This document shows, piece after piece, positions 7,695-63,439 of a stretch of 64,000 nt of DNA (positions are counted from its first letter, which is position 1; each line of letters starts with the position of its first letter). Under the pieces are notes generated by a model that ran no database searches, was not told the origin of the DNA, and saw only the letters and a list, made by a program, of their open reading frames with translations. The DNA is from Candidatus Latescibacterota bacterium. Lineage in GTDB: Bacteria > Latescibacterota > UBA2968 > GCA-2709665. The position numbers and the translations under genes are program-made. Where the stretch lies: contig CBDCOX010000002.1 of NCBI GenBank assembly GCA_965219995.1, positions 1,536,001 through 1,600,000 on the forward strand, in the 5' to 3' direction.

Positions 7695-8078
7695 TTACGT
7701 CTGCATGATTTGGATGAGATTTCCGCATGTATCGTCGAAGATCGCCAGCATAACGTCCTGATAGTTGGTCGGCTCCATCGTAAACGAGACGCCGAGCGCC
7801 TTCAATCGCTCAAACTCGGCTTGAGTATCCTCAACGCCGAACGATGCCGCGGGGATGCCCTGTTCGAAGAGTCCCTTTTGGTATGCCTTTGCCACCTGAT
7901 TCCCGTTCGGCTCGAGCAAGAGTTCGGGACCGTCGGGGTTTTCGGGAGAGACGACGGTGAGCCATTTGAACTCCCCGACGGGAACGTCATGCTTCTTCAC
8001 AAAACCCAGCGTTTCCGTATAGAACTTCAGGGCTTTGTCCTGGTCTTCCACAAATACGCCTGTGAGTACGATTTTCAT
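7695..8078 (-). CDS. VOC/glyoxalase family protein
   Basis: VEDQDKALKFYTETLGF, FDDTCGNLIQI; RBS aggag. Confidence 0.9.
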   Translation of the reverse strand: MKIVLTGVFVEDQDKALKFYTETLGFVKKHDVPVGEFKWLTVVSPENPDGPELLLEPNGNQVAKAYQKGLFEQGIPAASFGVEDTQAEFERLKALGVSFTMEPTNYQDVMLAIFDDTCGNLIQIMQT

Positions 8079-8171
8079 ATCGCGATTCTCCTGGTTATCG
8101 GTCGGTTTCGGGTACGAACGTTTGATGGTATTGCGACAGCTCCAACAAGCGATCGATCGCTACTGTAATTC

Positions 8172-8972
8172 TCACGCGGCCATGAAGGCGGCAAAAGTAC
8201 ACCCCGTTGGATGACAGTAGTTGTATTTGAAGTACGACCTGAATCCAATCTTCCGGTAGACCGGCTCTCCCATCTTCGACGCCTGCAGTACGGCAATCCT
8301 GTACCCCATTTGGCGAGCGTCCTTCATAGGCGCCAGCGTCATCGCAGTTCCGATTCCCTTCCTTCGATGCTCCGGCGAAACTTCCACCTGATAGATTCCC
8401 GCAACCCCGGATGACAGAAACAACATCGAAGTCCCGACCGGCTCGCCGTCGATCCGCCCCACGTAGAGTCGCACCAGGGGCGATTGGATGAGAACCTTGA
8501 ACATTTTGAACTCGAACAGAGTGAAGAAAGACAGCCATTCGCGCAGTCCGTTGTCATCACCCACCCGTTCTAATCTGAGGTCGAGCGGAAATGGACGCAC
8601 TCCATTCATCGCATCCAGTTCCATGGCCATCCCGGGAGGATTGTGATCCATCGCCACGAAGCCGTTTCTCAAGAGTTCATTTCTCAGATTCGCCGGCTGT
8701 GCCTTAGGACCGAACTTGAGAAGCGGCGGCAGCTCCCTTTGCTCAATACCCTCGCGAATACATTGGATACGTTTCTTGAGCATCGCTTCGTGGAAGCGCG
8801 GTTCGACCAGGTAATTCGGCCACCACGGTTTGCCGATGACGCCGGTGTAATCTTCCTCTCTCAGGATCGTCTTACCTCCCGATTCCGCGGCGAAGAGAAA
8901 CAGATCGATGTTGTTCTGCTCGATCGCGACAGTGACAGCGGAATCCGAAGAATCATTCAATATATCTGTCAT
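8172..8972 (-). CDS. GNAT family N-acetyltransferase
   Basis: VSPEHRRKGIGTAMT, LQASKMGEPVYRKIGF. Confidence 0.85.
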   Translation of the reverse strand: MTDILNDSSDSAVTVAIEQNNIDLFLFAAESGGKTILREEDYTGVIGKPWWPNYLVEPRFHEAMLKKRIQCIREGIEQRELPPLLKFGPKAQPANLRNELLRNGFVAMDHNPPGMAMELDAMNGVRPFPLDLRLERVGDDNGLREWLSFFTLFEFKMFKVLIQSPLVRLYVGRIDGEPVGTSMLFLSSGVAGIYQVEVSPEHRRKGIGTAMTLAPMKDARQMGYRIAVLQASKMGEPVYRKIGFRSYFKYNYCHPTGCTFAAFMAA

Positions 8973-9045
8973 TCAGGAACCTTTCTCGCCCGATCCAGTG
9001 TCAATAGCAACCGCGTCTGCGACTCCCAATACCCGGTTAAGGCAT

Positions 9046-9453
9046 TCATCGCGGTTCGGCTTGAACCGTTTTCGATATGATCGATTGCAGATCCGGTTCG
9101 GTAAACCGATCCGACTTCAACACTTTGCCGTCCTCCCTGTATATCGGTTTACCGTGCTCATCCAGTTTACTCATGTTGCTCCGGTGGACTTCGTCAAAGA
9201 GCTCTTCGGCAATGTCCTGCAGTCCATGGGTGATGAATGTGCCCAGGAGTACGTAGAGCAAATCGGTAAGGGCGTCCGCGATCTCCACGATATCCCGGTC
9301 TTGTACGGCCTCTCGATATTCCTCCAGTTCCTCCAGGAGCATCCTGACCCGCCATTCGCTTAACTCCGCGGGTACGATTGCGGTAGGCGTGCGCTCTATG
9401 TGCGCTCCGAACACCTCATGAAATCGTCTCACGCTATTCAGTTGATCTTTCAC
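9046..9453 (-). CDS. MazG-like nucleoside triphosphate pyrophosphohydrolase (PRA-PH family)
   Basis: EELEEY, EIADALTDLLYV, EVHRSNMSK, REDGKVLK; GTG start after gggaga. Confidence 0.85.
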   Translation of the reverse strand: MKDQLNSVRRFHEVFGAHIERTPTAIVPAELSEWRVRMLLEELEEYREAVQDRDIVEIADALTDLLYVLLGTFITHGLQDIAEELFDEVHRSNMSKLDEHGKPIYREDGKVLKSDRFTEPDLQSIISKTVQAEPR

Positions 9454-9621
9454 ACGGCATCTCCCGATAGGCTCTGCCTCAAATGTTGTCGGAATGTCTA
9501 TTGTCTCGCGAACCCAATGATTGTCGTCCCGGCTGATTGGGCGACCGTGAACCCTCTCAGCCGAAGCGCAGACCCTCACGGCGCGCCGATGGGGGGTCTC
9601 CAGTCGGAGCGTCGATTCAAG

Positions 9622-10410
9622 CTATCGTCGATGCTTCAGCAGGAAGATCATCTCAGGCGCTGCCGGATCTATCGGTTTCCGGTCAAAAGACCCGAATTCC
9701 CCCACGGTCTCGAGACCGGCGGCGTGAAAAAGCGCCTTGAGATGAGGATAGGTATACACGCTCATCCTGAATGGCTCTTCTTCCTCGGACAGTACGCGGC
9801 CGCCTTTATACAGCCGGAAGATAAACCTGCCGGCGAAACCCATGTTAACCGGATCGAATCCTTCCTTGACGAAGAATCTCCGGATGGTCCGACCGGTCCC
9901 GTCGCCGGCCGACCATTCCAGTTCCAGGTGTTCCTCGCCGTCGCCGGATAGAAGCTTGTCGAAGCGGGGATTGAACACGTCGAACGCGAGGACGCCTCCA
10001 TCCTTCAGATGTTTCCCGGCGTTTCTCAGCGCGGCCAGTTGATCTTCCACGGTGTACATATGCTGCATGGGTCTGAATGGAATGATTACCAGGGAGAAAC
10101 GATCCCTGAGAGAAAGGGTCCTGAAATCGCCCTCGACAACGCGTACCCTGCGTCTGGCGCCTGCAGGTTCTTTGGCGAGCTTTGTGCGCAGAGCCTCCAG
10201 CATCGCGCGAGAAGCATCAACCCCCGTGACATCGTGGCCCTGCCGCGCAAGCGGCAACGTGATTCTGCCGGTCCCGCAGCCCAGCTCCAGTACAGGCCCG
10301 CCATATTCCCCGGCCAGGTCCAGATAGAAGTCTCTGTCAACCAGGTCTTCCTTAACGCTGTATGCGGCGTCGTAGTGCTTCGCCGCCAGACTGTAGGCAT
10401 CATCGATCAT
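9622..10410 (-). CDS. Class I SAM-dependent methyltransferase
   Basis: VLELGCGTGR motif I; ATGA overlap with upstream gene. Confidence 0.9.
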   Translation of the reverse strand: MIDDAYSLAAKHYDAAYSVKEDLVDRDFYLDLAGEYGGPVLELGCGTGRITLPLARQGHDVTGVDASRAMLEALRTKLAKEPAGARRRVRVVEGDFRTLSLRDRFSLVIIPFRPMQHMYTVEDQLAALRNAGKHLKDGGVLAFDVFNPRFDKLLSGDGEEHLELEWSAGDGTGRTIRRFFVKEGFDPVNMGFAGRFIFRLYKGGRVLSEEEEPFRMSVYTYPHLKALFHAAGLETVGEFGSFDRKPIDPAAPEMIFLLKHRR

Positions 10411-11240
10411 CGCGAGTTTCCGATCACATTCTCAGAGCCAACCAGTTTCTCCCTCAGTTCAATCGCTGCCTGGAAGGCATCCGCAAGGAATTCAGAAGGG
10501 GCTTGAGCGAAATCCTGGGGCACTGACTCGATCATAATGGGACCCCGGCGGGATGCGGGATATGCTCTTGCAACGGTGTCCCAATTGACAATTCCCTTCA
10601 TCGGCAACCAGTGAACGTCGCCATGGCCGTCTGTATCCGAGAAATGGGTCGTGATAAGACGATGCGCCCATTTCTCAAGCACGGCGCCGGGCGTACTGGA
10701 ATACAGGAAATCGTGCGAGCTATCGTAACACAAGCCGAGGCTCGCCAGAGGAAGCTCAGTCAGAATGAAATCCAGACGATCGGTCAGCCTTGTATTCTCC
10801 AGAGCCAGCGCGACCCCACAGTTTGCCGCCTCCTCGCCCAACCGCCGTAAGGTTTCCAGACCTTCCGCACAAGGCGGAGGCGGCGATGGCCCCTTCGTTA
10901 CGTGAAGCACGATGCGGGAAATGGAATGCCGGCTGCAATACTCGATCAGCTTGACGTTCTCATTCACCAACGCGTCACGTTCTCCCTGCCGATCGGACCA
11001 GAAAGCATTCGCGTTGTCGTAGGGTGCGTGGACGTGATCGACGGCGAGCCCGGCATCTGCAACCATTCCCGGCATTTCGTGGGCACGACCCGATGCAACC
11101 AGGGGTTCTTTGTTGCCCATCCAAAGAAAGGTGTGACTGAATCCACTCTGTCTGATCAGACGTAAGCGTTCATAGAGAGGCAGTTCGTAGCCGAACCATG
11201 AGAATATTCCGAGAGGGGCCCGGGCGCTACCGGAGGTCAT
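10407..11240 (-). CDS. Sugar phosphate isomerase/epimerase (xylose isomerase-like TIM barrel)
   Basis: ALENT, CYDSSH, HFSD, DVHWLP metal-binding motifs. Confidence 0.85.
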   Translation of the reverse strand: MTSGSARAPLGIFSWFGYELPLYERLRLIRQSGFSHTFLWMGNKEPLVASGRAHEMPGMVADAGLAVDHVHAPYDNANAFWSDRQGERDALVNENVKLIEYCSRHSISRIVLHVTKGPSPPPPCAEGLETLRRLGEEAANCGVALALENTRLTDRLDFILTELPLASLGLCYDSSHDFLYSSTPGAVLEKWAHRLITTHFSDTDGHGDVHWLPMKGIVNWDTVARAYPASRRGPIMIESVPQDFAQAPSEFLADAFQAAIELREKLVGSENVIGNSR

Positions 11241-11318
11241 GGGTTGCTCTTTTTTTCATGTTGTACCATTCGTTTCGTCCATTTCTGTCTCAAGCTGTCG
11301 CTCCGATACAGCAGGGCA

Positions 11319-11732
11319 TCAGAGCCGTTGTTGTTTCTTGAGTTCCGGGACGATGTGGTTCCGCAGAATGGGATTCAACTGGTATTTCCCGGATTCGAGA
11401 TCCGCCATGGATGCCCAGGCGATCTCGAGTACTTCGTCCTGGTCGGGAACGGGTTCTCCTTCAAAACCTGCGACGTAAGCCCTGACCCTCACGATGTGCC
11501 GGTCTCCGGATTCCTCAGGGTTGGCCAGACGCTCGTATTCCCCGAAGAATTCAGCGTCCGTCGGGGTGATGTTCAGCTCTTCCTTCAACTCTCTTCGCAG
11601 TGTATCCAGGTCCGACTCGCCGTCTTCGACCTTTCCGCCCGGCAGGAGATAATCGTCGATGCCGTCGCACTTCACGAGCAGGAGGCCATCGTGGGAAATC
11701 AGAATTCCCGAAATGCGAACGAATGTCTTCAT
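11319..11732 (-). CDS. NUDIX hydrolase
   Basis: PGGKVEDGESDLDTLRRELKEEL Nudix box. Confidence 0.9.
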   Translation of the reverse strand: MKTFVRISGILISHDGLLLVKCDGIDDYLLPGGKVEDGESDLDTLRRELKEELNITPTDAEFFGEYERLANPEESGDRHIVRVRAYVAGFEGEPVPDQDEVLEIAWASMADLESGKYQLNPILRNHIVPELKKQQRL

Positions 11733-11747
11733 TGCCTGCTTTCAGGT

Positions 11748-11984
11748 ACCCGATTTATTCATGAACCGGAACTTACATGGATGGACAGGATCGACAGGAT
11801 AAAAACCAGGAACCGGAATAATTCACCCAATTCAAGGTTATCGCGATGAATCGGTCTACCGTAAGCTACACCACGAGACCCCGATCGTACCATGTCTCAG
11901 GTTGACGAAATTCCCTAAGGCAAATTTACTGAAAAGCAGCCGCTTATAAAGTAGACGATCACGATTTGTGGGAAAACTACCGGT
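11748..11984 (+). mobile_element. MITE-like intergenic element, copy 1
   Basis: acccgatttattcatgaa end, aacttacatggatggacaggat core, degenerate aaaagcagccgcttata box; aligns loosely with copy 2. Confidence 0.55.
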
Positions 11985-12072
11985 ATTGACATAAGACGAA
12001 GATCTGTAATCTTTCTATTCTCTCCGGCGGCTGCGCCACCGATCCACAGTCCGCCGGAATTGCCCTTCCTGT

Positions 12073-12567
12073 TTACGCCAATTCCTCCACCTTCAGGGAC
12101 TTAACCGTTACAGTGGACCCCCACCCCGGTCCGATACATACCGGCCCAATGAGGCCGTTGTAGTTATTTCGTTGAAACTCATCCGGGGTCTCGCCTTCGT
12201 TGCTGTAACGCAACTCACCGTCGACCAGCACCCGCATGAAATCCTCCTTTATCTCCCACGTCACCCTCACCCATGTATCCCGCGGAACCTGCCCCTGGCC
12301 CTCCGCGAAGAACGTATGGCCGTAGACCGGTTCGTAACCCGCCATCTCTTCCAGTGCGACTTCCCAGTTCAAGATCACGTGCCCCTTTGCAAAATGAAGC
12401 CGCAGGTTTGTGGAATCCGTCTTCGCCACCGCTTCGATCCGCAGCGGCACGGCGTAAATACCAGGAGTGCGAACGTATCCGTATCCCGTAAGGCTCAGCT
12501 GCTCACTGTTGCATTTTGCGACACATTCGCTGACCGGGACCAACCGGGAAAGTGGTATCTCCGGCAT
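12073..12567 (-). CDS. Hypothetical protein (beta-rich)
   Basis: 164 aa ORF with strong RBS aggagg. Confidence 0.7.
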   Translation of the reverse strand: MPEIPLSRLVPVSECVAKCNSEQLSLTGYGYVRTPGIYAVPLRIEAVAKTDSTNLRLHFAKGHVILNWEVALEEMAGYEPVYGHTFFAEGQGQVPRDTWVRVTWEIKEDFMRVLVDGELRYSNEGETPDEFQRNNYNGLIGPVCIGPGWGSTVTVKSLKVEELA

Positions 12568-12581
12568 CTCAACCTCCTCTT

Positions 12582-12868
12582 AACCCCTTTAATTCATATA
12601 ACGAAACTAACATGGATGGACAGGATGGACAGGATGAAAACCAAATCCGATCAGGAATTACAGGATTAGAAGGGATTAATAACCAGGAGCAGAGCAATTG
12701 CTCACTCTTCCAAGCAACAGCGATGAATCTGGCCACCCTGAGACCACGACAATACCCTGGTTGACCCGACTCCTGACTATTCAAGGTTTTCGTCATATAC
12801 ACTGCTAATGTTATTCAAAATCAACCGATTATACAACAAACTCACTGGTCTTCATGAATAATTCGGAT
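12582..12868 (+). mobile_element. MITE-like intergenic element, copy 2
   Basis: Aligns at both ends and through much of its length with reverse complement of 33141-33394; imperfect terminal inverted repeats; contains aatcaaccgatta. Confidence 0.75.
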
Positions 12869-13707
12869 CAAATCAGTCCGATTTTCCTGAACAGAAACAG
12901 GGCTTCAACGGTAAAGCTCGCCCGGTGTTCCTCACCGTGGCCGGTAATCCAGCCCCCGTCCTCCTGTTGGTTGCTGGTCACGCTGGCCAACGAAAGTTTA
13001 AAGAGGTCTTCCGCAACGTCACCGGCAAGATGGCTGGCGTGCGCAATGGAGATGACGTCTCCCGGATCCCCTTTGCCCTGTTCCACAGTATCATACAATA
13101 TCCTCCTGCATCCGCTGACAATCTCTTCGTCCGTCCCATTGCCGGATTCGTGGAGATGAAACAGTGGCAGCGCCATCCAGTGCGTGTGGTTGTAGTCCGG
13201 AAATCTCTCGCCATTCCATCCTCGCCGGATGAACTCCACGGCTTTTGCGAAATCCACCTCGTGCTGCATGCCCGATTCCATCAGTTTGCAGCACAGCGCC
13301 GAGGTCAGCCAGACCTGATTTCCGTACCGGCCGGGCAGCATCCAGAACGGCGGATTGAAATCCACAATGGCTTCCGGCTCATCCCAGCTTCCGTCTTCGC
13401 GCTGGGTTCTTCGGAGATAGTCGAGTGTATTCAGCAACACTGAACTGTCGCGATCTCCAATCCAATTCAGCCATTGAAGCGCGACGAACGTCGCGGTGAT
13501 GATCGACAGGTCGCCCTGAAAGTCCTTGTCCGTTCTCGTCCAGCCACCGTCATCTCTCTGATTGAAGGCGAGGGCCTCGATAACCTCGCCGCGACTGCAA
13601 TCTCCCGTTGCAAATCTGGCCAAACTCGAAAGTGCGGGATCGTCGGAATCAAGGACGAAAGCCACGGCTTTTAGCGGATCAATTCTGCTCACGATTCCTT
13701 CCTCCAA
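12868..13707 (-). CDS. Prenyltransferase/squalene oxidase repeat (alpha-alpha toroid) protein
   Basis: QRDDGGW, QREDGSW, QQEDGGW repeats. Confidence 0.75.
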   Translation of the reverse strand: MEEGIVSRIDPLKAVAFVLDSDDPALSSLARFATGDCSRGEVIEALAFNQRDDGGWTRTDKDFQGDLSIITATFVALQWLNWIGDRDSSVLLNTLDYLRRTQREDGSWDEPEAIVDFNPPFWMLPGRYGNQVWLTSALCCKLMESGMQHEVDFAKAVEFIRRGWNGERFPDYNHTHWMALPLFHLHESGNGTDEEIVSGCRRILYDTVEQGKGDPGDVISIAHASHLAGDVAEDLFKLSLASVTSNQQEDGGWITGHGEEHRASFTVEALFLFRKIGLI

Positions 13708-13771
13708 CGGTCATTCGAACTTGGTGGCCGAAGAGCGGGATTCCTTGGCTGCTCGCGTCCAGCCACGCGCT

Positions 13772-14830
13772 TCAACTGGCAAGGCTGGGCAACACGTCTT
13801 CCGCCCTTCCAGCCAGGTATAGGTCATCCTCGTGCAGAAACTCCGGGCGGTCCGGAGAGACCGCGGCGACTCTCAGGCCACTGTCGCGCGAATAGCTGAT
13901 CAATCCGTGTTCATCTCTACCAAGACCGATCGCGAGGAGAACCTTCCCGTCCTTGAACCACCCCCATCCACGAGCGCCGGGCTTGAAGTCATCCGGATTC
14001 TTCACGTGGACGTTGACTGATCCCGCCCGTTCGTGGAGCCTGTCTCCATTCCCTGTAATAACGCGGAGAACGAAGCCTCTATCCTCCAGGTTAGCCAATG
14101 CTCGATGTGCGCCATTTGGTTCCGCCTGCAGGAAGGCGGCTTGAAAACTCCCAAGAATCTCCGCGAGTTTACGTGGCTTTTCAATCATCAAGTCCGCGAC
14201 GGCGCCCGGAAACGGTTCATGCAGCGGGAAATGGCGCTCCAGACCCTCGGAACCCCTGAAGCTGGGGATCCCGCTCCCTGTGGATATTCCGGCACCGGTG
14301 ATTGCGACCGCGGGGTTTTGAGACACGAGCGTCTTCAGGTCCGAAATCGTGATGCTCTTTGCAGCTTCCGGACGCGCATTTGCGCTAACCGGATAGTACT
14401 GGTTTCTCGCGGCGAGACCGCCTCCTGACGCCGAAACCCTCGGCTCGAATCGACGGAAGTGCGATTCTTGAAGATCCTCTGAGTCCCCGTAGGTGAGGAC
14501 GAGGTGACTCGCCATTGTTCCGCGGCCGGTATGTGAAGACAACAGTTCAATCCGGAATTCGACCGTTCCACTGCCGGGCGCGGTGGAAACGGAAGCCAGC
14601 TTCCGTCTGAGCTGTTCGACCTCGTCATCGAACTCATCTTTCGCATATTCTCCGGAACAAGCGACGCATAGATCGAGCAATTCGACCGTTCCCGCTCGGT
14701 CCACCCCGAGTCGGCCGTAGAATCCAAATGTCCTTCCCCGACCCACAAAAGTCCAGTCGAAGTCAGCAAAACTCCCCCAGATCAACCTGTAGGATTCAAG
14801 CTGCGAGTTTGTGAGATTGACAACAAGCAT
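13772..14830 (-). CDS. Atypical SIR2/sirtuin-family protein with N-terminal extension
   Basis: TGAGISTGSGIPSFRG, EPNGAHRALA, TGNGDRLHERAG. Confidence 0.75.
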   Translation of the reverse strand: MLVVNLTNSQLESYRLIWGSFADFDWTFVGRGRTFGFYGRLGVDRAGTVELLDLCVACSGEYAKDEFDDEVEQLRRKLASVSTAPGSGTVEFRIELLSSHTGRGTMASHLVLTYGDSEDLQESHFRRFEPRVSASGGGLAARNQYYPVSANARPEAAKSITISDLKTLVSQNPAVAITGAGISTGSGIPSFRGSEGLERHFPLHEPFPGAVADLMIEKPRKLAEILGSFQAAFLQAEPNGAHRALANLEDRGFVLRVITGNGDRLHERAGSVNVHVKNPDDFKPGARGWGWFKDGKVLLAIGLGRDEHGLISYSRDSGLRVAAVSPDRPEFLHEDDLYLAGRAEDVLPSLAS

Positions 14831-14926
14831 ATTTCAGATTGTGCCGGGTGAGCAACCGCCGACGTTTTCGCCGCGCGCGAGTCGTAACTGCTATCCTATA
14901 GTCCGAAAAACCATCGTCGATTTACC

Positions 14927-15490
14927 CTATGCTTTTCTTGCCTGCTTCAAGTCATACGCAAATCGGTACAGTTCACCGAAGTCCGGGGATTCCGGACCGA
15001 ACAGCGCCGGCACCTCGCTAAAATGGACGGCCCGGACTTCGACAATCCCACTATGCGGATCAGGATCAGATCTGTCTTCGGTGTTCGGGACCACGTCCGC
15101 CCACGATACCACTCGCACATGGACCGGATGAGGGACGTGGGGCAATCTTGGTCGGTCGTTTCGAGAGACGCAATAGTACATCCCCATGGGATGAAGCTTT
15201 CCCGGAACCCACCCGGTCTCCTCCAACAGTTCGCGACGACCGGCCTCCTCCCAGCTCTCGCCAGGCTCGACGGTGCCTCCCGGCAGGACCCATTTTCCGT
15301 TAGACCGCCTGGTCACGAGACAATGCGTATCCGATACGAAGGGAATGACATAAGACGAGCCGCAAGCGGTCGACGCCATTTCAGCTTCGAACCCGCGGAA
15401 GTGGACGTCGGGACGCAACTTCCCCTTCTCCCCGCTGAGCACGGGGTATTTCGCTATCAATTGATCGAACTGCGCAGGATCCACGTTCAA
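14927..15490 (-). CDS. NUDIX hydrolase
   Basis: PGGTVEPGESWEEAGRRELLEETG. Confidence 0.9.
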   Translation of the reverse strand: MNVDPAQFDQLIAKYPVLSGEKGKLRPDVHFRGFEAEMASTACGSSYVIPFVSDTHCLVTRRSNGKWVLPGGTVEPGESWEEAGRRELLEETGWVPGKLHPMGMYYCVSRNDRPRLPHVPHPVHVRVVSWADVVPNTEDRSDPDPHSGIVEVRAVHFSEVPALFGPESPDFGELYRFAYDLKQARKA

Positions 15491-15571
15491 TCTGGTCCGT
15501 TTCCCGAGTCGAGTCCTGCCTCGCAGCGATGACAGTCGTTCAAGCCCGGTGGCGCGCGTCGCGGTTTCGTT

Positions 15572-16375
15572 TCAGTCGAGTGGCTTTCCCCATGTTACTC
15601 TCGTTTGAAGATCGAAGCTGAGAATCCCGCGTTCGTCGGCGTATTCGAAGAGGACGTCCGATAGCCGGGCATCAAAAGCCGCAGCGTTGACCTCCCCCAT
15701 GTGTTCCACGGACATGCTCTCACGCGAGTGAAAGGAACCGACGTAGTCCCGAATCGACTGCAAAAAAGGAACGGGCGCGGTCAGTACATCCGCCAGCCGC
15801 AGAAAGTGTCCGCGGTCCTCGAGCTCTTGAATCAAATCAATGTCTTCGTAATGCGGGTTCGTCGAATATTCGCGAATCAGCGAGAGCTCTGCTTCCCGCC
15901 ATGGCGGTTGGATGGGTCGATCGCCGTCGATAATGACAACGTGCCCGCCATCCGGCATCGCTTTCCTGAATCTCGGAAAGACGGTCTTCCACTCCATCCA
16001 GTGGATGCTTGCGCCCGCTGTCACGAGGGTGTAGGGCGGGTCCCATTCCACCTCCTCGACGCGTCCGTGAATCCATCTGAGGCGCGTATGTTCTCCGTTG
16101 GGCAGCGACTTTCCCACACGAATCATGTCTTCCGAAAAGTCGATTGCATCCACGCCATCCGCGTAATCCACAAGCCTTCGAGCGATCTTGCCCGTACCGC
16201 AGCCGGCGTCCAGGACTCTGCCCGGCGCCCGCCCGAGCAAGTCTCTGAGTATTTTGAACACTTCTTCCGGATATGGAGGACGTAGCTCGTAGGCGTCCGC
16301 AAGGCTCTTATGCTTGAACCGCGACGCATAATCATCCCAGTACTGACGCGGCCTCGTGGAGATGTCTGTGGCCAT
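15572..16375 (-). CDS. Class I SAM-dependent methyltransferase
   Basis: RPPYP, VLDAGCGTGK, SIHWM. Confidence 0.9.
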   Translation of the reverse strand: MATDISTRPRQYWDDYASRFKHKSLADAYELRPPYPEEVFKILRDLLGRAPGRVLDAGCGTGKIARRLVDYADGVDAIDFSEDMIRVGKSLPNGEHTRLRWIHGRVEEVEWDPPYTLVTAGASIHWMEWKTVFPRFRKAMPDGGHVVIIDGDRPIQPPWREAELSLIREYSTNPHYEDIDLIQELEDRGHFLRLADVLTAPVPFLQSIRDYVGSFHSRESMSVEHMGEVNAAAFDARLSDVLFEYADERGILSFDLQTRVTWGKPLD

Positions 16376-16439
16376 CCTAATCAGCCCTATAACGTAGCGT
16401 GGCTATTTGGACCGGTCCACCTGTTGACGTCCGTGAAAT

Positions 16440-17153
16440 CTAACGGGTTTCCGTGATCGAATGGATCGCCGAAGGCAGGGAATACAGGTTGGAAATTGTC
16501 TCGTCCGGGAATTCATCTGGCACGCGAGGTTCCAACGCCGCGTATCTGCCTTGCCGCATCCAAACGGTCCGAAGGCCAACCTGCTTCGAGGGAATGATAT
16601 CGTTGTCGAGGCGATCGCCGATCATAATCGCCTCCGAAGGCGCAAATCCCGCCCGGTCAAGTAATGTGCGGAAGAATCGCTCATCAGGCTTCTTGATCCC
16701 GAGGCTGCCTGACACGTCCGTATGGCGAAACCATCGCAATACACCAAGATCGTCCAGGACGTCAACAATACTCGCGGGCGCGTTACCGGCCAGCGCGAGC
16801 GTGTATTCTCCGGCCAAGCGTTTGAGAACCACATCGGCCCCGGGATACAGCTGGCAACCGAGTGCCCGGATCTCCGGGTAGTGCGATCGCACTTCCCCGG
16901 TGATCTCGTTGAAGAGGCGCACATCAGACCCGGCGAAGTGCCACGTGATCGCGTGCATGGCGCTCGGAACGAACCGCGAAATCTTGTCGCTGTCCAACTG
17001 TCTGTACTCTGCAATGGACAACTCAAAGCCGAAGTTGCCAAGCGTGGTTCGATGCACCTCCATCAACGCATCCTGTTGACCGGCAGCGTCGAGAAGGGTC
17101 TCTCCGATATCGAACAGCAGCACCGAAATCATGGGAGTCTCAGCTTGGTTCAT
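16440..17153 (-). CDS. HAD-superfamily hydrolase
   Basis: FDIGETL, KKPD, IGDRLDNDI. Confidence 0.9.
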   Translation of the reverse strand: MNQAETPMISVLLFDIGETLLDAAGQQDALMEVHRTTLGNFGFELSIAEYRQLDSDKISRFVPSAMHAITWHFAGSDVRLFNEITGEVRSHYPEIRALGCQLYPGADVVLKRLAGEYTLALAGNAPASIVDVLDDLGVLRWFRHTDVSGSLGIKKPDERFFRTLLDRAGFAPSEAIMIGDRLDNDIIPSKQVGLRTVWMRQGRYAALEPRVPDEFPDETISNLYSLPSAIHSITETR

Positions 17154-17198
17154 CCAATATACGGCGCGAAGTCATCCAACGTCGTCAGCTCTTGCAAG

Positions 17199-18173: not shown

Positions 18174-18176
18174 TGC

Positions 18177-19520: not shown

Positions 19521-19679
19521 ATAAATCTCCTTGAGTTATCGACGCTTCCAGCGTTTGCGGCCGCCGCGAGCCTGACGGGCACGAGCGGCACGAGCGGCGT
19601 CGCAGACCTCGTCCTTCGCGCTCGATTACAAGCCGCCGATTCCGCCGTGAAACCGAATCGTCTTTGACGGCGAGATCCG

Positions 19680-19728
19680 GTAACGAGACCCAGCCCGATC
19701 ATCACAACCTGCTATCGGGTCTCGTTAC
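19680..19728. other. 12 bp perfect inverted repeat overlapping VOC stop codon
   Basis: gtaacgagaccc ... gggtctcgttac. Confidence 0.6.
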
Positions 19729-20108: not shown

Positions 20109-20257
20109 GAACTCTGCCTCCTTCAATGGCCACACGCCCGGAACCAAGGCAATGCTCAATGCAGGACAATGGCCGGCTATAGGAAGCCGAGGCGGTGCTC
20201 GGATCGATGATCGGGCTGAGTGCTACGTCGTCAGACGGCAAATCAATCGCCCCGGTC

Positions 20258-21376: not shown

Positions 21377-21400
21377 GGTTTGACTCGTTTGGAGGGCATA

Positions 21401-50623: not shown

Positions 50624-50664
50624 CGTTGCTTCCTCAAGTTATGTTGATTCTATCTTCCCATTTT

Positions 50665-50750: not shown

Positions 50751-50763
50751 GATGGCGGCCTGA

Positions 50764-53026: not shown

Positions 53027-53230
53027 CGATCCCCCTGCAACAGGTGTTTGTCCTATTTGTCTGACGTTCGGCGAACATACCGACGGCAAGTCGGGTGAGG
53101 GATGGGACGGACCGAGCCGCAAGTGCTGCCGTCACCCGACGCCGGGACGATCGTGCTGCACTCCATGACGCCGAGGCCGCGAACCAGCGACATCCGCTAA
53201 TCGATTCAGCCCCGCGCGTTTCACATTGTT

Positions 53231-54859: not shown

Positions 54860-55012
54860 GGCCCGCCTGAAGGAGATAACAGACAACGTGGCGCCGTATT
54901 GCGTACCTCGAAGGTGATTGAACAAGACCAGCGCGTCATCCGTCAAGCTAAGGACAGGCTTTGCCGCAAAGCGGAAGCCGGTTGTCAGTCGGTATACGGG
55001 GTTTTGCGGAGC

Positions 55013-55938: not shown

Positions 55939-55979
55939 CGTCACTGCCTCAAGTTATGTTGATTCTCTCTTCCCACTTT

Positions 55980-56080
55980 ATAAATCGTTCATCCGTTACC
56001 GAACCCCGGGAGCACAGCGAAGTGGGTTGCCGGAGGCCAAGCCGCCACCGGCCCCGCAGCGCAACACCGTGCTGTTAGAC
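55980..56080 (-). mobile_element. attC-like site (R'' GTCTAAC, R' GATTTAT)
   Basis: Minus strand GTCTAAC-agcac-GGTGTTGC, matching the site at 57554; upstream gene stop TAA lies within R''; L' degenerate. Confidence 0.75.
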
Positions 56081-57523
56081 GGTGTCGCCCCCTGCATTCA
56101 GATGCTGATCAGCAAATCTTTGGTAGACATCAGAGTCCGGTTTGCTCGCGCTGTGGAGCCAATTCACTGATGTCGCCATCATATAGGGACGCCACATTGG
56201 ACTTACGATTCCGTAATTTTGGAATATCGCGACTGGGAACTTGTAGTCGTGTGCGTCAGGGTTGGCCTTTCTCTGGACAAGCTGACGCGATCTGCGCAAA
56301 AACGTGTCCAGGCCAAACGCCTTCTTGCCATATGTGAACGCCAACTTCTCCGCTTCTTCAATTCCAGACCTGTCCTCTATCTGTTGCCTCATCTCTCGAC
56401 TTGGGAGCAGCGAGAACACTTCCTCCGTCGCGTCCTCACTCGATTCAATGCCTTCCTTCGGGGCAAGGTCCGTAATCTTCCTGTCCCGCAAATTCCCGTG
56501 TTCGTGCTCAATGCCAATAAAGTTCGCGACCCATCCCACCGCTTGCAACAGAACGAAGAGCCGAGTCGTCTGACTCACAGTATCCTCGAACGCATAGTGC
56601 ATCGCGTTGGCTACGGTATTCGAATGCAATGGACGCGTGTTAATGCCTCCGGATCCTGCGTATCCCCCCTGTTTATGTCGGTGCATGAACTCACCAGCCG
56701 AAAGGAAAACTGCGTCCCAGACTGCTCCGGCAGGCACCCCAGAATCGACTATCTGACTGTACGCCATATCAGTGGCGCGATCCATCTCGCCAGCGCGAAT
56801 CTCCGAAAGCAACTCCAAAGTGGAGGTCTCATCGAAGCCTGCTCTCACCCAATCTGGCGCCAAACTCGAAGCCCTCGTGGCTCGTTCCATGTTCTCTCGG
56901 TATGGTTGCGAATCCAAGTCCCCAACGCGAGACATCAGATCCGATACGATGAATCGAAGGATTGGCTCAGAGTAGTGCCATCCCACGGTTTGGAGACTTC
57001 GCCAACAATTAGCGACAGCTATGATCTTGTGGCCGATGAAGCCCCATTCCTTCGCCCCATAGTGCCAGAGTTCCTCGATAATGTCACGCGGGCTCCACGA
57101 CCTACTCAGCCCAATCAGGGATCGCTCGGCTCGCCCTTGATCCCAGGAGTCCATCGCTTCTCTGAATTCCAGCAATGCTTTATCGCCCGTTGGGTATACG
57201 CCTTCCAGAGCGTCACGTGGCGGCTTTGCGTAATTCTCTTGAGCCCTCTTCAGGCTGTCGAGACCCCAAAAGACAGGGATGAGTCGATCTGCCCCAACTG
57301 AATCCAGGCTCATCTGATGAGCGGAATAAACCAGATACACTTCGTGATGCGTGCCTTCACAGGAACTGGCGGCAACCAGTAGGGCTGCAAGTGCCTGCCT
57401 GTACGTGAGCCCCTTTCTGAACTCGTCGGCAAGCATCTCAACCGCTCCTTCACGCGGCACATCTATCATTCGCTTGACAATGGGCTGAAGAGCCTCGCTC
57501 AGCTCTGTATGTCGTAGCGTCAT
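56075..57523 (-). CDS. Hypothetical alpha-helical protein with recurring His motifs (cassette)
   Basis: GHKII, HSNTVANA, HDYKF; flanked by GTTAGAC/GTCTAAC. Confidence 0.75.
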   Translation of the reverse strand: MTLRHTELSEALQPIVKRMIDVPREGAVEMLADEFRKGLTYRQALAALLVAASSCEGTHHEVYLVYSAHQMSLDSVGADRLIPVFWGLDSLKRAQENYAKPPRDALEGVYPTGDKALLEFREAMDSWDQGRAERSLIGLSRSWSPRDIIEELWHYGAKEWGFIGHKIIAVANCWRSLQTVGWHYSEPILRFIVSDLMSRVGDLDSQPYRENMERATRASSLAPDWVRAGFDETSTLELLSEIRAGEMDRATDMAYSQIVDSGVPAGAVWDAVFLSAGEFMHRHKQGGYAGSGGINTRPLHSNTVANAMHYAFEDTVSQTTRLFVLLQAVGWVANFIGIEHEHGNLRDRKITDLAPKEGIESSEDATEEVFSLLPSREMRQQIEDRSGIEEAEKLAFTYGKKAFGLDTFLRRSRQLVQRKANPDAHDYKFPVAIFQNYGIVSPMWRPYMMATSVNWLHSASKPDSDVYQRFADQHLNAGGDTV

Positions 57524-57553
57524 GGGTTCACCTCATACCTATTGGGCGATACC

Positions 57554-57645
57554 GTCTAACGTCTCGCCGGTTTGCGAACAGCGAAGGTGGTTGCCCAAGG
57601 CAAAGGCGATAGTAGCCGTCGCAGCGCAACACCGTGCTGTCAGCG
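57554..57645 (-). mobile_element. attC site (best preserved)
   Basis: Minus strand CGCTGAC-agcac-GGT(G)TTGC ... GCAAACC-ggcgagac-GTTAGAC; extrahelical base at position 4 of L''; R' fits GTTRRRY. Confidence 0.85.
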
Positions 57646-57682
57646 GACGTGGCATCCTGGTCGGGCCTTACAATGCAGACCG

Positions 57683-58439: not shown

Positions 58440-60254
58440 TTATAGATCTTCATTCGGCATCTGCGGATGTTGGGCAGGAAAGAGCGCATCCAGGAGCTCT
58501 GCCGCATCTCCTGTAAACAACATGCCCAACCGTTCGGCAATTTCACCAGGTGGTTCTTTTCCAATGATGATTTGTGCAAACTCATGACCACATTCAATGG
58601 TGTTTTCTGCTTTGCCGCCGGGCTGCACAGAGATTTCACTGTTGTCGATGGATAGCACTGCAGACTGGTCCGGGATAGAAATCTTCAATGTGCCCATGAA
58701 ATCTCCGAGACCCGATTTTCGTATACGTCGAGACAGTTCAGGTGCGATCTTACTCAGCGTCGTCTCCAGGTTGATGATGCGAATCTGGTTCCCCGTCCGA
58801 CCATTGTGGTTTCTGGCTGAATAAAGATGAGGCAACTGTCGCACGCGTCGTGCCAGCGCGCTGCGCCAGGGGAGTCGGACGAATTGCACCCTGGGTCCCT
58901 GGTATTGCCGGGCAAGTTGCCCTAAAACGCGCAGGATCTGTTCCGGATCACCGGCTGAATCCGTATGACGCAGGTCGCGTCCCTCGTGATCTTTCTCTGT
59001 ATTCGGGCCATCGTAGAGATAACCCACCGCACGTCCGGTTTTATCGTTGAAAATGTACGCTGTCCACGGATCGTCGTCTTCCGGCGGGCATTTGCCTCTT
59101 CGGTATGTTGGACGGACGGTCGTGCCGGTCAATCCGTCGTGCCATCGATTGTGAAGTTCGGCCAGGTCTCTGCGCCCGTGAATCACGTTGACATGTACTT
59201 CCTCCAGCTCTATTTCCGGCGCTGCTTCAGGCAGGTGCTCGGTGTCTATAAAATACGTCTCCTGATCCGGCCAGGCAAGCACGTAGCCGAAATTCGCAAA
59301 GCGATCGAGCGGTTCGGTACGTGTACACGACATATCATAGCCATGGGCATACATGGCGTCCAGCGCCGCCTGAATTGTTGCCGCGTAGATCCCCTCATCC
59401 CGATAGTCGGGATGCACGGTCGGCAGATTGATGCCCCCGGTCCGGACTGTTGCGCTGCCGATGCGCATCGACAGATCGTAAATGCCCGCGTGCGTGACCA
59501 CATCACCATCCATCGTTCCGATCCGCGACGTCAGCCAGTCGTAGTGACTGTGCGCGATGCGTCCTGCGCGACACTGACGGCTGATGGCGTTCCAGCGCCT
59601 ATCCAGCAACTCATAGATATCTTCGCTATGATCCGCTTTATCCGGCGCCAGGATTTCTCGCACACGGTCAATGAACCGCTCGTCCCGCGAAGGCCGGTTC
59701 TCATGTATATTGTCCTTCACCATATCGAATAGCCTTTCCTTGAGCCGTTTCCGCGCCGACCGCAAACGGTTCTTCACGACGGCGACTGACACACCCAGAA
59801 AAGCGGCCACTTCCCGCTGTGAATAATCCGAAATGTAGAACAAAGACACGGCCTGACGTTCGGTTTCGGGCAATGTGTCGATCGCTTCTCGCACAAGGCA
59901 CCGCATCTCGTTTTCTTCTGTTGTCCGATCCGGATGCCGGTCTTCCGATGCGATCTCGACAAGCTGTTCCATGGATACGATCTCGACCTTCTTTCCCCGG
60001 CGCGTGATCCGATCGCAATATTTGAACACGATCCTGCGCAACAGGGCAGGAAAAGCAAAGACATCGTACACGCGCTCCAGATTCACCCAGGCCTCTGTAA
60101 ACGCCTCCTGCGCCGCGTCCTGCGCCAGGTGAAAATCCCTCAACAACGCGAATCCGTATCCCACGGCGAGATCCTGGAAGTGTGTCACAATCTGCTCGTA
60201 GGCCTTCAGATCTCCTTGCTTCGCGCGTTCGAATATCGGTTTCAGTGTCTCCAT
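58440..60254 (-). CDS. ECF sigma-70 factor fused to Eis-like GNAT acetyltransferase
   Basis: AQDAAQEAF (region 2), YSQREVAAFLG...VKNRL (region 4), then TVHPDYRDEG and SCP2-like tail. Confidence 0.85.
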   Translation of the reverse strand: METLKPIFERAKQGDLKAYEQIVTHFQDLAVGYGFALLRDFHLAQDAAQEAFTEAWVNLERVYDVFAFPALLRRIVFKYCDRITRRGKKVEIVSMEQLVEIASEDRHPDRTTEENEMRCLVREAIDTLPETERQAVSLFYISDYSQREVAAFLGVSVAVVKNRLRSARKRLKERLFDMVKDNIHENRPSRDERFIDRVREILAPDKADHSEDIYELLDRRWNAISRQCRAGRIAHSHYDWLTSRIGTMDGDVVTHAGIYDLSMRIGSATVRTGGINLPTVHPDYRDEGIYAATIQAALDAMYAHGYDMSCTRTEPLDRFANFGYVLAWPDQETYFIDTEHLPEAAPEIELEEVHVNVIHGRRDLAELHNRWHDGLTGTTVRPTYRRGKCPPEDDDPWTAYIFNDKTGRAVGYLYDGPNTEKDHEGRDLRHTDSAGDPEQILRVLGQLARQYQGPRVQFVRLPWRSALARRVRQLPHLYSARNHNGRTGNQIRIINLETTLSKIAPELSRRIRKSGLGDFMGTLKISIPDQSAVLSIDNSEISVQPGGKAENTIECGHEFAQIIIGKEPPGEIAERLGMLFTGDAAELLDALFPAQHPQMPNEDL

Positions 60255-60579
60255 CTCGCTCCTCTGATTATGAAGGCCTTCACCGGTAATATCCCAATTG
60301 GGGTGGATTGGGTGTACTTATCCTATGTATTTTGGTCTCCTGAGAGGAACAGGAAGATCGCAAAATATTAATAAACAATGGTTTAAAAGATTCCAAAAGA
60401 CGAACGCCACATTGTGCTATTCGATGATATTGGGCCTGCCCGGAGAGTGTTCGGGGCTGGCAGTCGGAAGGAAATGAAGGGAGGGCCTAAAAAGGCTGGG
60501 TTGTTGGGGATTATTGTCAATGCCTGTTATATGTCGTCTTTTTCAGGGCGGTCAAATGTCGGCCTGCATTCCCGCCACT

Positions 60580-60661
60580 TGCTAACCCGCCCGGCTCTAT
60601 TGGCCGGGCTGCCCGCGGGACCAGGGCGAGAATGGGCCGCAGCGGCAACAAGCTGTTACAC
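60580..60661 (-). mobile_element. Degenerate attC-like site
   Basis: Minus strand GTGTAAC-agctt-GTTGCCGCtgcgg ... GTTAGCA; right half poorly paired. Confidence 0.5.
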
Positions 60662-60696
60662 GATTATGATTCACAACCGACACCGGATGGTGCCAT

Positions 60697-61464: not shown

Positions 61465-61495
61465 ATTGCACGCTATCCGTGAACATCGAAGGCCA

Positions 61496-61595
61496 AATTA
61501 TCGTTCAGGCACTCGTTTTACGTGTTGTGCATTCCCGCAGCCGCGAATCGATTAGGCGAGGGGAATGCCCGAAGTAGAAAACGCTGCTGTTACGC
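61496..61595 (-). mobile_element. attC-like site
   Basis: Minus strand GCGTAAC-agcag-CGTTTTctAC..gcattccc ... gggaatgc..GTAAAACG-11 nt-GATAATT; R' assignment uncertain. Confidence 0.6.
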
Positions 61596-61678
61596 CACGT
61601 GGAAAAATCGAAAACATAGCCCACTCCGGTGATTCGCTTTCTTGAGGTGGCGACTTTGTTGGCAGTGTTTCACATCAC

Positions 61679-62433
61679 TCATCCAGGTCTGGTTGGTAAC
61701 TTATCTGCCATGTCCGATATCACGCTGATGCAGAGCCCCATAAGATCCTGAGCGCTTTCCACATCATACCGAGCCTCCGGATGTTGAGTTGGGTTCCGGT
61801 ATTCCACCCTCACTAGGTCGAGCGTGTCCAAAAGGTTCGCTGGAGGCTTGTTCCGTGACTTAGACCTTAGCGCGTAAACCATTGCCCCCACGTTGGATTC
61901 TCAAGGCGATTCCGTCGGATGTGGAGCCGGTAGTAGGTTCGCAATACATCCTCGGTCGCCCGGAGCCAGTGAAACGCAGCAGCAGTGCCTTCACCAAAGA
62001 GGACGCATCGACCAGCACTCCCGATATCGAATTGGGCTAGGTCAGGCAGCTTCTGAAAGACGCTGTCGCGAAAGAACTTGGCCGGCTCGTTGAGTAGCCA
62101 GGTGGTGTTATATCTTCGTTCTGGCAATATGTAGATGGACTTCGTTCTGGACTCAGCGAAGATGATCTGTTCAAGGATCGCGATGTTCGCAACAATGTCC
62201 TTGGCTCTGGGCCCGAGCAACTCAGTTGGTTCGCACTCGGAAAGCTCTGTCTTGATAGCAATTAGCTTGGCCATTCCACTGATTGACACGGTGAGGCCAG
62301 CGCCCACGATCTGTCGCTCAAGAGCTGTGATGTTCCGAACCGCATAGTCGATGTCGTTGGACGCACTGGTATGGCGAAGGTGCCTAATCAATAGACCCAC
62401 ATGAATCAGTGAGTAACTGTTTCTTGATTCCAT
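61679..62433 (-). pseudogene. HEPN-like protein, frameshifted in a G run
   Basis: ORFs 61867-62505 and 61679-61891 join at PTWG/GAMV if one G is added; distal part has RNPTQH (R-x4-H). Confidence 0.7.
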
Positions 62434-62497
62434 GTAATCCTCACGCTTTACGCTGGATCGGTTAAGAACGAAAACGGTGTTAAAAGAAGATCGATCG

Positions 62498-63439
62498 CTA
62501 TTCAAGACTCTCGATGTGAGGCTTTAGCGAAGAGACGAAGTTGCCCATTGCTGTAATCATGACATCCTGTATGTGAGGCCAATTGTCTTCTTCAGATTTC
62601 AGCCCGCCTTCTTCAATGACATGTCTTACCCTCGAAGCTCTTCGCTGATCCAGCCGCTCCCATTGAAGCTCCCGTCCAAACCGCTTTTCAATTTGCTCGC
62701 GCTTTGCCGCCAGCGAATCGAAGTGTCGCTTGTTCTTCTCGCCGTCGCCGGTGTCGATATAGAGTTCAACAGCTGTCCTGTGCTTTAGCCAGACCACATA
62801 ATTGAAGGAAAGACCTGACTTGCCTGCCCCGGCGCCGATCCAATGTTCTTTAGTGGGCGATCTAGAACTGTGGATGGCAACGCCATGGCTCTTGGCACGT
62901 TCCAGCAACTGTTGCCAGAATCTGATTCTAAGATGATGTCGCTCTGCAAGATCCTTCTTGGATTGACCGATGGACGTTGGCTCCTCACTAGGTCCAACAA
63001 TCACGGTGAAGAGCGGCGCGGGGTCTGAATTCCCAATCTGAAAGGCTGTCAGCTTCACCAAATAGAATGCTGTATCGGGTGGAGTCGACTCGTTCAACCA
63101 GGCGATTGCTCTTGCATGTTCTGGTCGAGCGTGACTGGTGATCCAGACCGCGGTTTTCGCATTTATATTTGAAAGATAAGTAAGAACTTGCCCAAGGTGC
63201 TTGTGATCCGTCTGTTCAATTTGGTTTTCGATCACAACCACCTCACCGCTACCATCCTCGGCAACCAGATCGATCTCGAAATCCCCCGCAGATTTCTCTT
63301 TCTGGACTTCGGCAAGTCTGATGTCGAGCTTATCAGCCAGTACTTCGATGTTTTGCTCTAGCCACTGGGAGAAACCTCGTTCTTCATTCTCCCACACTTT
63401 CCGTAGCGGCACCTCATCCAAATTTCCAATACGTGTCAT
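62498..63439 (-). CDS. DUF4268 domain protein with N-terminal PD-(D/E)XK (NucS-like) nuclease domain
   Basis: W..E...FS.WL, IDLVAED, VIENQ, DHKHLGQVLTY, FWQQL, AVELYID, LQWERL. Confidence 0.85.
   Translation of the reverse strand: MTRIGNLDEVPLRKVWENEERGFSQWLEQNIEVLADKLDIRLAEVQKEKSAGDFEIDLVAEDGSGEVVVIENQIEQTDHKHLGQVLTYLSNINAKTAVWITSHARPEHARAIAWLNESTPPDTAFYLVKLTAFQIGNSDPAPLFTVIVGPSEEPTSIGQSKKDLAERHHLRIRFWQQLLERAKSHGVAIHSSRSPTKEHWIGAGAGKSGLSFNYVVWLKHRTAVELYIDTGDGEKNKRHFDSLAAKREQIEKRFGRELQWERLDQRRASRVRHVIEEGGLKSEEDNWPHIQDVMITAMGNFVSSLKPHIESLE

Follow-up and report, generated by a model that had tools for sequence, protein, structure and literature searches.

The question raised by this locus is how a long series of small, mostly unrelated genes came to lie on one strand of a bacterial chromosome. 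The genes occupy positions 7695 to 63439 of a 64,000-nucleotide stretch of a Latescibacterota genome (G000:C2:1536001-1600000; assembly of 5.43 Mb). We call this stretch the window and continue its numbering beyond its right end. The span is very probably the distal, older half of a sedentary chromosomal integron-type cassette array with its entry point at an attI site on the right and its integrase lost. The array runs from 7.7 to ∼122.6 kb (∼115 kb, ∼105 genes), with 58 kb lying beyond the window. Cassettes would have entered at the head by attI × attC recombination, and the distal third would have lost its attC sites and stopped moving. The enzyme responsible would be an IntI-like recombinase whose gene adjoins attI in sister genomes; it is without the insertion specific to IntI and, in its full-length form, has an extra N-terminal domain of ∼95 amino acids (aa).

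Genes were called by a codon-score model trained on long open reading frames (ORFs) of G000, with a score threshold of 5. Of the 57 calls within 7.6 to 63.5 kb, 56 are minus-strand genes; the single exception (plus strand, 45964-46368) scores 5.3, at the threshold. An initial annotation made from the window sequence had placed every credible gene of the span on the minus strand and had proposed comparing this bias with the rest of the replicon; the calls and the comparison bear it out. The longest same-strand run of the genome lies here and comprises 41 genes when counted strictly and 50 when calls scoring below 10 are disregarded, and outside the array locus the longest runs reach 22 to 24 genes. 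In the two 100-kb bins around the window, 95/102 and 76/84 calls are on the minus strand (93% and 90%); the remaining bins of the genome are 27 to 80% plus. A Pfam scan of 65 ORFs included 60 minus-strand ORFs from the span, and 51 of these gave a match. As annotated, neighbors are mostly unrelated, with six S-adenosylmethionine-dependent methyltransferases, four NUDIX, four VOC/glyoxalase, and four APH proteins. One ANT(2'')-like protein, GNATs, three ankyrin proteins, and a MacB-like permease were also found. The G+C content of the span is 0.52 to 0.59, vs 0.60 to 0.62 in the left flank (2 to 8 kb) and 0.607 in contig C2. GC skew is negative throughout the locus.

The spacers between these genes hold a family of attC sites. 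The family was found by all-against-all BLAST of intergenic spacers and reaches far to the right of the window. A hidden Markov model built from 13 spacers was iterated with nhmmer over the whole genome, and two covariance models (R1 and R2) were added; sites were therefore called with models built in this analysis rather than with the attC model of IntegronFinder. All 17 nhmmer matches in G000 at E ≤ 0.01 are on the minus strand and within 49.6 to 119.2 kb, with nothing significant elsewhere in the 5.43 Mb. Two further sites, at 111.9 kb and (weak) at 38.9 kb, come from the covariance models and bring the number to ∼20. Most sites lie 0 to 40 nucleotides (nt) 3' of the stop codon of a minus-strand gene. 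Each is an imperfect palindrome in which the R'' box ends in TAAC and the R' box begins with GTT; an L box and two inner hairpins complete the structure, and the crossover is G|TT. Known attC sites are imperfect palindromes of ∼57 to 141 nt with R''/R' and L boxes and the box consensus RYYYAAC/GTTRRRY. In a set of 69 sites from G000 and its relatives (10 loci or genome sets, structure set by hand), lengths range from 74 to 147 nt (median, 92 nt), and 40 R'' and 33 R' boxes lie within one mismatch of that consensus.

Pairing and covariation within this set are consistent with a conserved fold. Paired cells make up 80.5% of the total, vs 32 to 43% with slid partners, and 151 cells show double changes, vs 68 in shuffles (0/500 shuffles reach 151), in an alignment that was fitted to the structure model and so favors that structure. 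RNAalifold run on a plain MAFFT alignment, which is not structure aware, returned only a 3-pair hairpin. A scan needing 14 of 25 ungapped arm matches retrieved no site, this filter being too strict for bulged sites, and an Rfam scan of the window gave no match. Five attC sites in the window were graded solid and three weak (Table 1). Two of the weak sites follow NUDIX genes. The G013 homologue of the first gene (38980-39501) has a strong attC, into which the alignment extends, and homologues of the second (46317-46757) carry attC in G013 and G014. No attC was detected in the window left of 38.8 kb by nhmmer, covariance models, or position weight matrices. The initial annotation had recognized attC-like sites at 49.6 to 61.6 kb and had called the locus an integron-type array; the solid sites at 49588 to 60665, folded, with a G|TT crossover and each 3' of a co-oriented gene, agree with both statements, and weak sites occur at 38879 and 46223 as well. 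The gradient of attC decay that it proposed was not recovered: across 49 to 119 kb the site density is patchy rather than graded, and the sites end abruptly near 39 kb.

The head of the array retains a trace of its platform. As the initial annotation noted, the window contains no tyrosine recombinase. The whole of G000 holds only two, both distant and both below the IntI cutoff (92 and 61 bits on TIGR02249 vs 265). The search that it proposed beyond 64 kb and across the genome thus yielded no canonical IntI, and the recombinase of the relatives is not a canonical IntI either. A tblastn search of G000 with a true IntI (from G017) and the G013 recombinase matched the two distant genes, which are of Xer type, and 53 aa of a cassette ORF, but nothing else; on these results an IntI remnant was rejected. 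None of the 14 genomes of the genus (g1) has an IntI above the TIGR02249 cutoff. At its right end, the array is followed by a gene for a peptidoglycan-binding-domain protein and then by a divergent PolB gene at +123.8 kb. G012 and G013 carry a recombinase gene on the cassette strand between these genes and the cassettes; G003 keeps only its 3' end. When 25 copies of the recombinase 3' end were aligned, most shared ∼130 to 190 nt past the stop codon. The shared sequence ends exactly at G|TT and is followed by nine different continuations, which is the behavior of an attI site. All copies, even mere fragments of the gene, have attI physically attached to the 3' end of this insertion-less recombinase gene. 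G000 keeps an attI remnant at ∼122.6 kb, next to PolB, so the entry point does lie to the right of the window, where the initial annotation had put it. Because the integrase gene next to attI is gone, the array in G000 is a cluster of attC sites without an integron integrase (CALIN) by the usual definition and cannot move its own cassettes.

Integrase-3'-end and attI modules are also repeated near the head and inside the arrays of sister genomes (G013, G003, and L073). Since internal attI relics occur in G000 at ∼52.2 and ∼115.2 kb, the array may be composite, a concatenation of several platforms. The cassette at 51231-52148 begins directly after the copy at ∼52.2 kb.

Comparison between genomes indicates that the cassettes act as independent units bounded at the crossover. 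Ends of synteny blocks fall within 40 nt of an attC or attI site more often than expected in G010 (20/88; 4.3 expected), G013 (6/42; 2.1 expected), G014 (11/73; 3.6 expected), and G009 (11/67; 3.3 expected). The cassette behind attI in G013 is the one that lies behind an attC (102819-102921) in G000, with 97% identity and the junction at G|TT. Metagenome contigs from four public runs of four studies (X1, X2, X4, and X19) were placed on 45 to 64 kb at 90% likeness. One X4 contig joins 57579 to 56024/56025, attC to attC, and omits exactly the 482-aa cassette, which was not found in G013, G014, or G009. Further joints of attC to attC link 57595 to 54980 in contigs of X4 and X19 and 57579 to 50726 in X1, and another X4 joint begins at 46241, within the possible decayed attC. 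One X4 contig lacks 52168-53211, which holds the 198-aa ORF and an attI relic. These contigs represent different cassette orders in related populations and not recombination events.

Of the same runs, X1 and X2 are labelled sponge metagenome, X4 is labelled metagenome, and X19 "organism B"; their contigs span most of 45 to 64 kb, partly at ≥99% identity, and parts of 61.5 to 63.4 kb have no cover in the four runs. Sequence of this lineage is present in sponge and marine metagenome runs, and an ankyrin-rich cassette content would fit a host-associated life.

The locus is conserved across the genus. The decarboxylase gene (2177-3580) on the left and PolB on the right are present in all 14 genomes and, when they share a contig, are separated by 108 to 180 kb. 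The attC family occurs in all five arrays examined in detail (G000 and four relatives), with 23, 25, 8, and 8 matches (E < 0.01) in array orientation in G010, G013, G014, and G009, respectively. Each G000 gene was then compared with these four arrays, identities being medians per relative. Between 7.7 and 39 kb, 17/34 genes occur in all four relatives, at 78 to 89% identity (left flank, 78 to 91%). The corresponding values are 5/26 genes at 83 to 90% for 39 to 64 kb and 7/25 at 92 to 95% for 64 to 95 kb. Between 95 and 122.5 kb, no gene of 20 occurs in all four and 10/20 occur in only one, at 95 to 97%. For the right flank, identity is 85 to 88% in the three relatives that are more distant. 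Cassettes near the head are thus patchy in distribution but exceed core genes in similarity, a sign of recent exchange; the array tail behaves like vertically inherited genome. This is the polarity foreseen in the initial annotation, with variation between species near the entry point and fixed genes at the far end.

Three strong attC sites in G013 lie left of the decarboxylase gene (L042, G013:C1:4600001-4620000, at ∼8.8, 9.9, and 11.5 kb), at positions homologous to -25.6 to -24.9 kb and -1.3 kb of the window numbering. The matching G000 region has no attC, though its genes, too, lie almost entirely on the minus strand from about -45 kb onward. At some time, the region with cassettes may have reached past the left boundary used here.

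The recombinase of the relatives stands close to IntI without belonging to it. The G013 ORF, which is N-terminally truncated, scores 214 bits on TIGR02249, in two stretches, and falls below the curated cutoff of this IntI model and of every NCBIfam Xer model scored (NF040815, 218.6 vs 220; XerC, 194 vs 335; XerD, 186 vs 330). It is 35% identical to the canonical IntI of G017 and lacks ∼45 residues at the IntI insertion. The full-length form has 376 aa, is 94% identical to the G012 copy, and carries the extra N-terminal domain; catalytic residues are conserved across the family alignment. Its closest solved relative is VchIntIA/IntI4 (2a3v; 151 bits; Foldseek E value of 4e-15, 33% identity), followed by XerA (125 bits). 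Residues 171 to 237 of IntI4, which hold the I2 helix, are without counterpart, the recombinase having 25 residues there. In the AlphaFold model (mean predicted local distance difference test score, 84), the N-terminal domain (residues 9 to 75) is confident. Modeled alone, this domain gave weak fold matches to the N-terminal domains of T4 UvsW (Z score, 5.6; root mean square deviation, 2.1; 59 residues aligned) and XPB (Z score, 4.2 to 4.3) and to the SMARCAL1 HARP domain (Z score, 3.5). The predicted likeness is a lead only, below the level that would suggest more than a common arrangement.

Within the phylum, the recombinase family occurs in 27/168 genomes and the attC family in 63/151. Among the matches listed (150 of 548 attC matches, from related genomes that are not independent), an attC of this family lies no more than 7 kb from at least 14 recombinase genes, in 13 genomes and 9 genera. 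The gene has the orientation of the cassettes in G012, G013, G015, G017, G020, G088, and G090 and diverges from them in G016, G101, G102, G103, G105, and G106. For the 24 IntI places listed, the same matches include no attC of this family at such a distance; the nearest, in G017, is 18.7 kb away. Genus g6 resembles g1 in carrying arrays without a canonical IntI (0/21 genomes). Members of the recombinase family also occur in Chloroflexota and Bacillota.

In G017, a short insertion-less member of the family (a 314-aa open frame) lies immediately behind a canonical IntI gene, and the pair is present twice (C1, ∼2.4936 to 2.4957 Mb and ∼2.1586 to 2.1604 Mb). G020 has six copies of the short form. 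One mobile element may carry both genes.

Several observations weigh against a cassette array run by this enzyme. The ∼20 sites serve ∼70 genes in 49 to 122 kb, most of which have no detectable site, and 68 of the 88 block ends in G010 lie away from any detected site. The joints seen in metagenomes derive from contigs placed at 90% likeness, and attC sites are repeated sequences. Cassette recombination in the array is itself something that we infer by comparing sequences. In 7.6 to 38.9 kb, the 3' half-site matrix retrieved 3 matches (2.55 expected) and the 5' matrix 21 on the minus strand vs 34 on the plus, without enrichment. A broader covariance model found no attC in 7.7 to 38.8 kb, and none of the 34 distal genes has a homologue with a strong attC in the four relatives (weak in 3). 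As for the enzyme, the genes of G012 and G013 are truncated (they match residues 106/108 to 373 of the 376-aa form), no full-length copy was found in the 14 genus genomes searched, and canonical IntI exceeds the cutoff in 17/168 genomes of the phylum. The recombinase family is also very large, with 7537 of 8000 scored candidates at E < 1e-20, and has members across other phyla; a direct-repeat search beside two Bacteroidota members (L075 and L081) revealed no array.

Three other explanations have to be set against these results. The idea that the repeats are terminator hairpins or repetitive extragenic palindrome (REP)- or miniature inverted-repeat transposable element (MITE)-like sequences spread between genes, with co-orientation due to replication, is hardly credible. 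The genome does contain dispersed REP/MITE sequence, some of it in the array, and the sites are GC-rich hairpins after genes. The attC family, however, occurs at a single locus on a single strand, homology between genomes is interrupted at its sites, its boxes fit RYYYAAC/GTTRRRY, and one cassette follows attI in one genome and attC in another. A more serious proposal is that only the part from ∼39 kb onward consists of cassettes and that the distal 31 kb is a vertically inherited, leading-strand accessory block beside the array. It would account for the lack of any attC or relic there in five genomes, for a gene order that is largely conserved, with divergence equal to that of the flanks, and for the strand, as minus is the leading strand (negative GC skew) and the core flanks are also mostly minus. 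The initial annotation had held that older cassettes lost their attC and became fixed. Fixation, with core-like divergence, was supported, whereas matrices, covariance models, and homologues gave no sign of a loss of attC. Of the three findings that the same annotation had named as speaking against an array, conserved gene order in sister genomes and the lack of attC-bearing homologues were both seen in this block. Even so, we consider this proposal unlikely. The block has the low G+C of the array (0.52 to 0.59 vs 0.60 to 0.62 in the flank) and the same families as attC-bounded cassettes here and in G088 (APH, VOC, NUDIX, GNAT, ankyrin, and MacB-like), and the same-strand run is unequalled elsewhere in the genome. 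In G013 the block is inside the array, with an attC-bearing NUDIX cassette abutting the 3' end of the left-boundary ankyrin gene. Single distal genes are relocated in relatives' arrays with orientation kept, although confusion of paralogues is possible. Composition, family spectrum, position between the boundary gene and the attC-bearing part, and the relocated genes speak for a place of the block in the array, and we infer that it is made of former cassettes.

The last alternative concerns the enzyme. A canonical IntI, since lost, could have built the array, and the insertion-less recombinase could be a bystander or a mobile-element gene targeting the same place. The presence of canonical IntI elsewhere in the phylum, including a genome of the same family (G017), fits this account, as do the two G017 copies of the short recombinase directly downstream of IntI, the multicopy state of the family in G020 and G017, and the canonical look of attC and attI with their G|TT crossover. 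Against it stand the two array-bearing genera without any canonical IntI, the attI joined to the insertion-less gene in every copy, and the listed IntI places, which have no neighboring attC among the matches listed, although IntI may use attC types that the model misses. On balance, we regard a lost canonical IntI as improbable. That Latescibacterota carry a second integron lineage, with canonical-looking attC and attI run by a relative of IntI from which I2, the insertion regarded as necessary for reading folded attC, is missing, whether lost or never acquired, is a tentative proposal of which we are somewhat less than half persuaded.

Table 1. Features of the array and its surroundings (window numbering)
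Positions	Strand	Feature	Evidence or remark
5541..6884	+	Ankyrin-repeat gene, conserved left boundary	Pfam; homologues at array edge in 4 relatives
6885..7694		Boundary spacer, two tandem ∼220-nt copies (7200-7417, 7421-7638)	
7695..38854	-	Distal block, 34 co-oriented small accessory genes, low G+C	Pfam: methyltransferases, NUDIX, VOC, GNAT, APH, MacB-like
22838..23112		Copy of MITE-like element (∼240 nt, genome-wide)	Related pieces 11733-12072, 12568-12867, 32099-32142, 33133-33393
38879..38974	-	attC, weak; leftmost site detected	R1 E 0.004, R2 E 0.031; 5 nt downstream of NUDIX gene 38980-39501
41246..43863	-	ABC-2 transporter operon, three genes	Pfam; multigene unit without internal attC
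46223..46307	-	Possible decayed attC, weak, after NUDIX gene 46317-46757	R1 E 1.8 only
49588..49683	-	attC, solid, after gene 49727-50623	nhmmer E 9e-4; R2 E 0.002
50660..50755	-	attC, solid, after 64-aa ORF 50764-50958	nhmmer E 1e-11; R1 48.7 bits; R2 56.9 bits
52178..52295	-	Partial attI-like copy, ending at G|TT near 52181	blastn vs G013 integrase 3' end and attI, 87.5% over 52181-52244
52526..53122	-	198-aa ORF, no Pfam match	First 53 residues: 62%-identical homologue is the N terminus of the G013 recombinase ORF
54877..54992	-	attC, weak, after gene 55013-55633	nhmmer E 0.052
55978..56084	-	attC, solid, R'' box overlapping stop codon of gene 56075-57523	nhmmer; R1 78 bits; R2
56075..57523	-	Single 482-aa cassette between two attC	100% identical in G010; bridged over by X4 contig
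57549..57650	-	attC, solid, after ANT(2'')-like gene 57683-58291	nhmmer; R1 73.4 bits; R2
58440..60254	-	Sigma-70/GNAT fusion	Pfam
60553..60665	-	attC, solid, after methyltransferase gene 60697-61464	nhmmer E 9e-9; R2 E 0.14
115162-115332 (L012:11162-11332)		attI relic with last 40 nt of recombinase gene	blastn, alignment
122547-122652 (L012:18547-18652)		attI remnant at array head, integrase gene deleted	blastn, alignment

Some features of the locus stand apart from the cassette question. The MITE-like element has 70 matches in the genome, 6 of them inside the array, in line with the REP/MITE sequence that had been annotated between the leftward genes. A GC-rich hairpin motif of ∼30 nt, unrelated to the attC family, recurs in spacers of the distal block (7670, 29562-29595, and 34439-34472). 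Relic attC sites seen by eye in such spacers, near 14.87 and 16.4 kb, are not claimed, as the half-site matrices show no enrichment. The ABC-2 operon is 92 to 99% identical in G010 and G014; G013 and G009 have nothing closer than a 29% match to the ATPase. Relative to gene 49727-50623, gene 55687-55944 is a copy with an internal deletion (stretches compared, 55675-55988 and 49715-50673). Their ends are 84 to 89% identical, including the 5' leader after the preceding attC, and the pair is a duplicated cassette with one copy decaying. Two cassettes carry fusions of extracytoplasmic function-type sigma factors, one to GNAT (58440-60254) and one to about ten ankyrin repeats (L012:12608-14887); both architectures are unusual. 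Further along contig C2 (∼5.2 to 5.43 Mb), G+C is 0.68 over the last ∼230 kb vs 0.59 to 0.62 elsewhere, GC skew flips sign many times along the contig, and the stated contamination of the assembly is 7.6%. The G000 assembly may be partly chimeric; at the array locus it is collinear with relatives whose genomes are complete.

With ∼115 kb and ∼105 genes, the array is among the largest cassette arrays described, and genes of APH/ANT type, GNATs, VOC genes, and methyltransferase genes abound in its pool. The aging of arrays can be followed in it as a natural series, from a variable, recently exchanged head through a patchy middle to a fixed tail turned ordinary genome. A working integron without I2, if true, would change the defining feature and the detection of integrons and would bear on their origin from Xer-like recombinases. 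Likewise, if the second lineage is real, part of the "orphan" CALINs in surveys would belong to integrases that current detectors exclude. Among titles and abstract openings, with subscription journals outside the search, we found no paper on integrons in Latescibacterota and none tying attC/attI arrays to an insertion-less IntI relative.

The known systems closest to this locus are the sedentary chromosomal integrons, of which the Vibrio cholerae superintegron with its VCR sites is an example. Shared features are a single chromosomal locus conserved across a genus, homogeneous attC sites, species-variable cassettes, and a ∼100-kb array of co-oriented, promoter-less-looking small genes. The rule for chromosomal integrons that the attC bottom strand lies on the leading-strand template also holds here, as judged from the negative GC skew. 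The G000 array differs in having no integrase and in its attC density, which is only about one site per 3.5 kb where attC occurs and zero over the distal 31 kb; the phylum, Latescibacterota, and the relatives' integrase, which lacks the IntI-specific insertion and lies on the cassette strand, differ as well. The criteria for sedentary integrons given by Cury et al. 2016 include presence in all genomes of a species or more than 19 attC sites (PMC4889954). G000 has ∼20 sites at a conserved locus whose flanks occur in 14 genus genomes; the required integrase is absent from it. As to the general marks of integrons, the form and position of attC agree, attI ends at G|TT in sister genomes and persists as a remnant in G000, and an IntI-specific domain is lacking.

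As described in the same source, CALINs are clusters of attC without an integron integrase, a few of them very large (up to 114 attC), and loss of intI is one origin proposed for them (PMC4889954). Sites called by our models place the G000 array in this class, with at least two attC within 4 kb, no IntI in reach, and a genome without intI; in a difference from that description, its former platform can be located by the attI remnant. The sister-genome recombinase would probably not be counted as IntI by the intI_Cterm criterion of IntegronFinder. Its placement recalls the "inverted integrase group" of integrons, so named in one report (PMC3575428). In both, the integrase is transcribed with the cassettes and its 3' end faces attI (here in G012, G013, G088, G090, G017, and G020). 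Treponema is an example of that group, whose integrases are canonical IntI. In the class-level relatives G101 to G106, in contrast, the short form diverges from the array. The I2 helix has been described as the feature that adapts the enzyme structurally to single-stranded attC substrates (PMC4792948). Among solved proteins, the recombinase is most like VchIntIA/IntI4 in sequence and fold, with XerA next, yet the I2 region of IntI4 (171-237) has no counterpart in it. Conversely, both IntI and Xer enzymes (XerA, XerC, and XerD) are without the ∼95-aa N-terminal domain of the full-length recombinase. In place of I2, the long-form enzyme would have this domain, whose best, if weak, fold matches are the branched-DNA-binding N-terminal domains of T4 UvsW and XPB.

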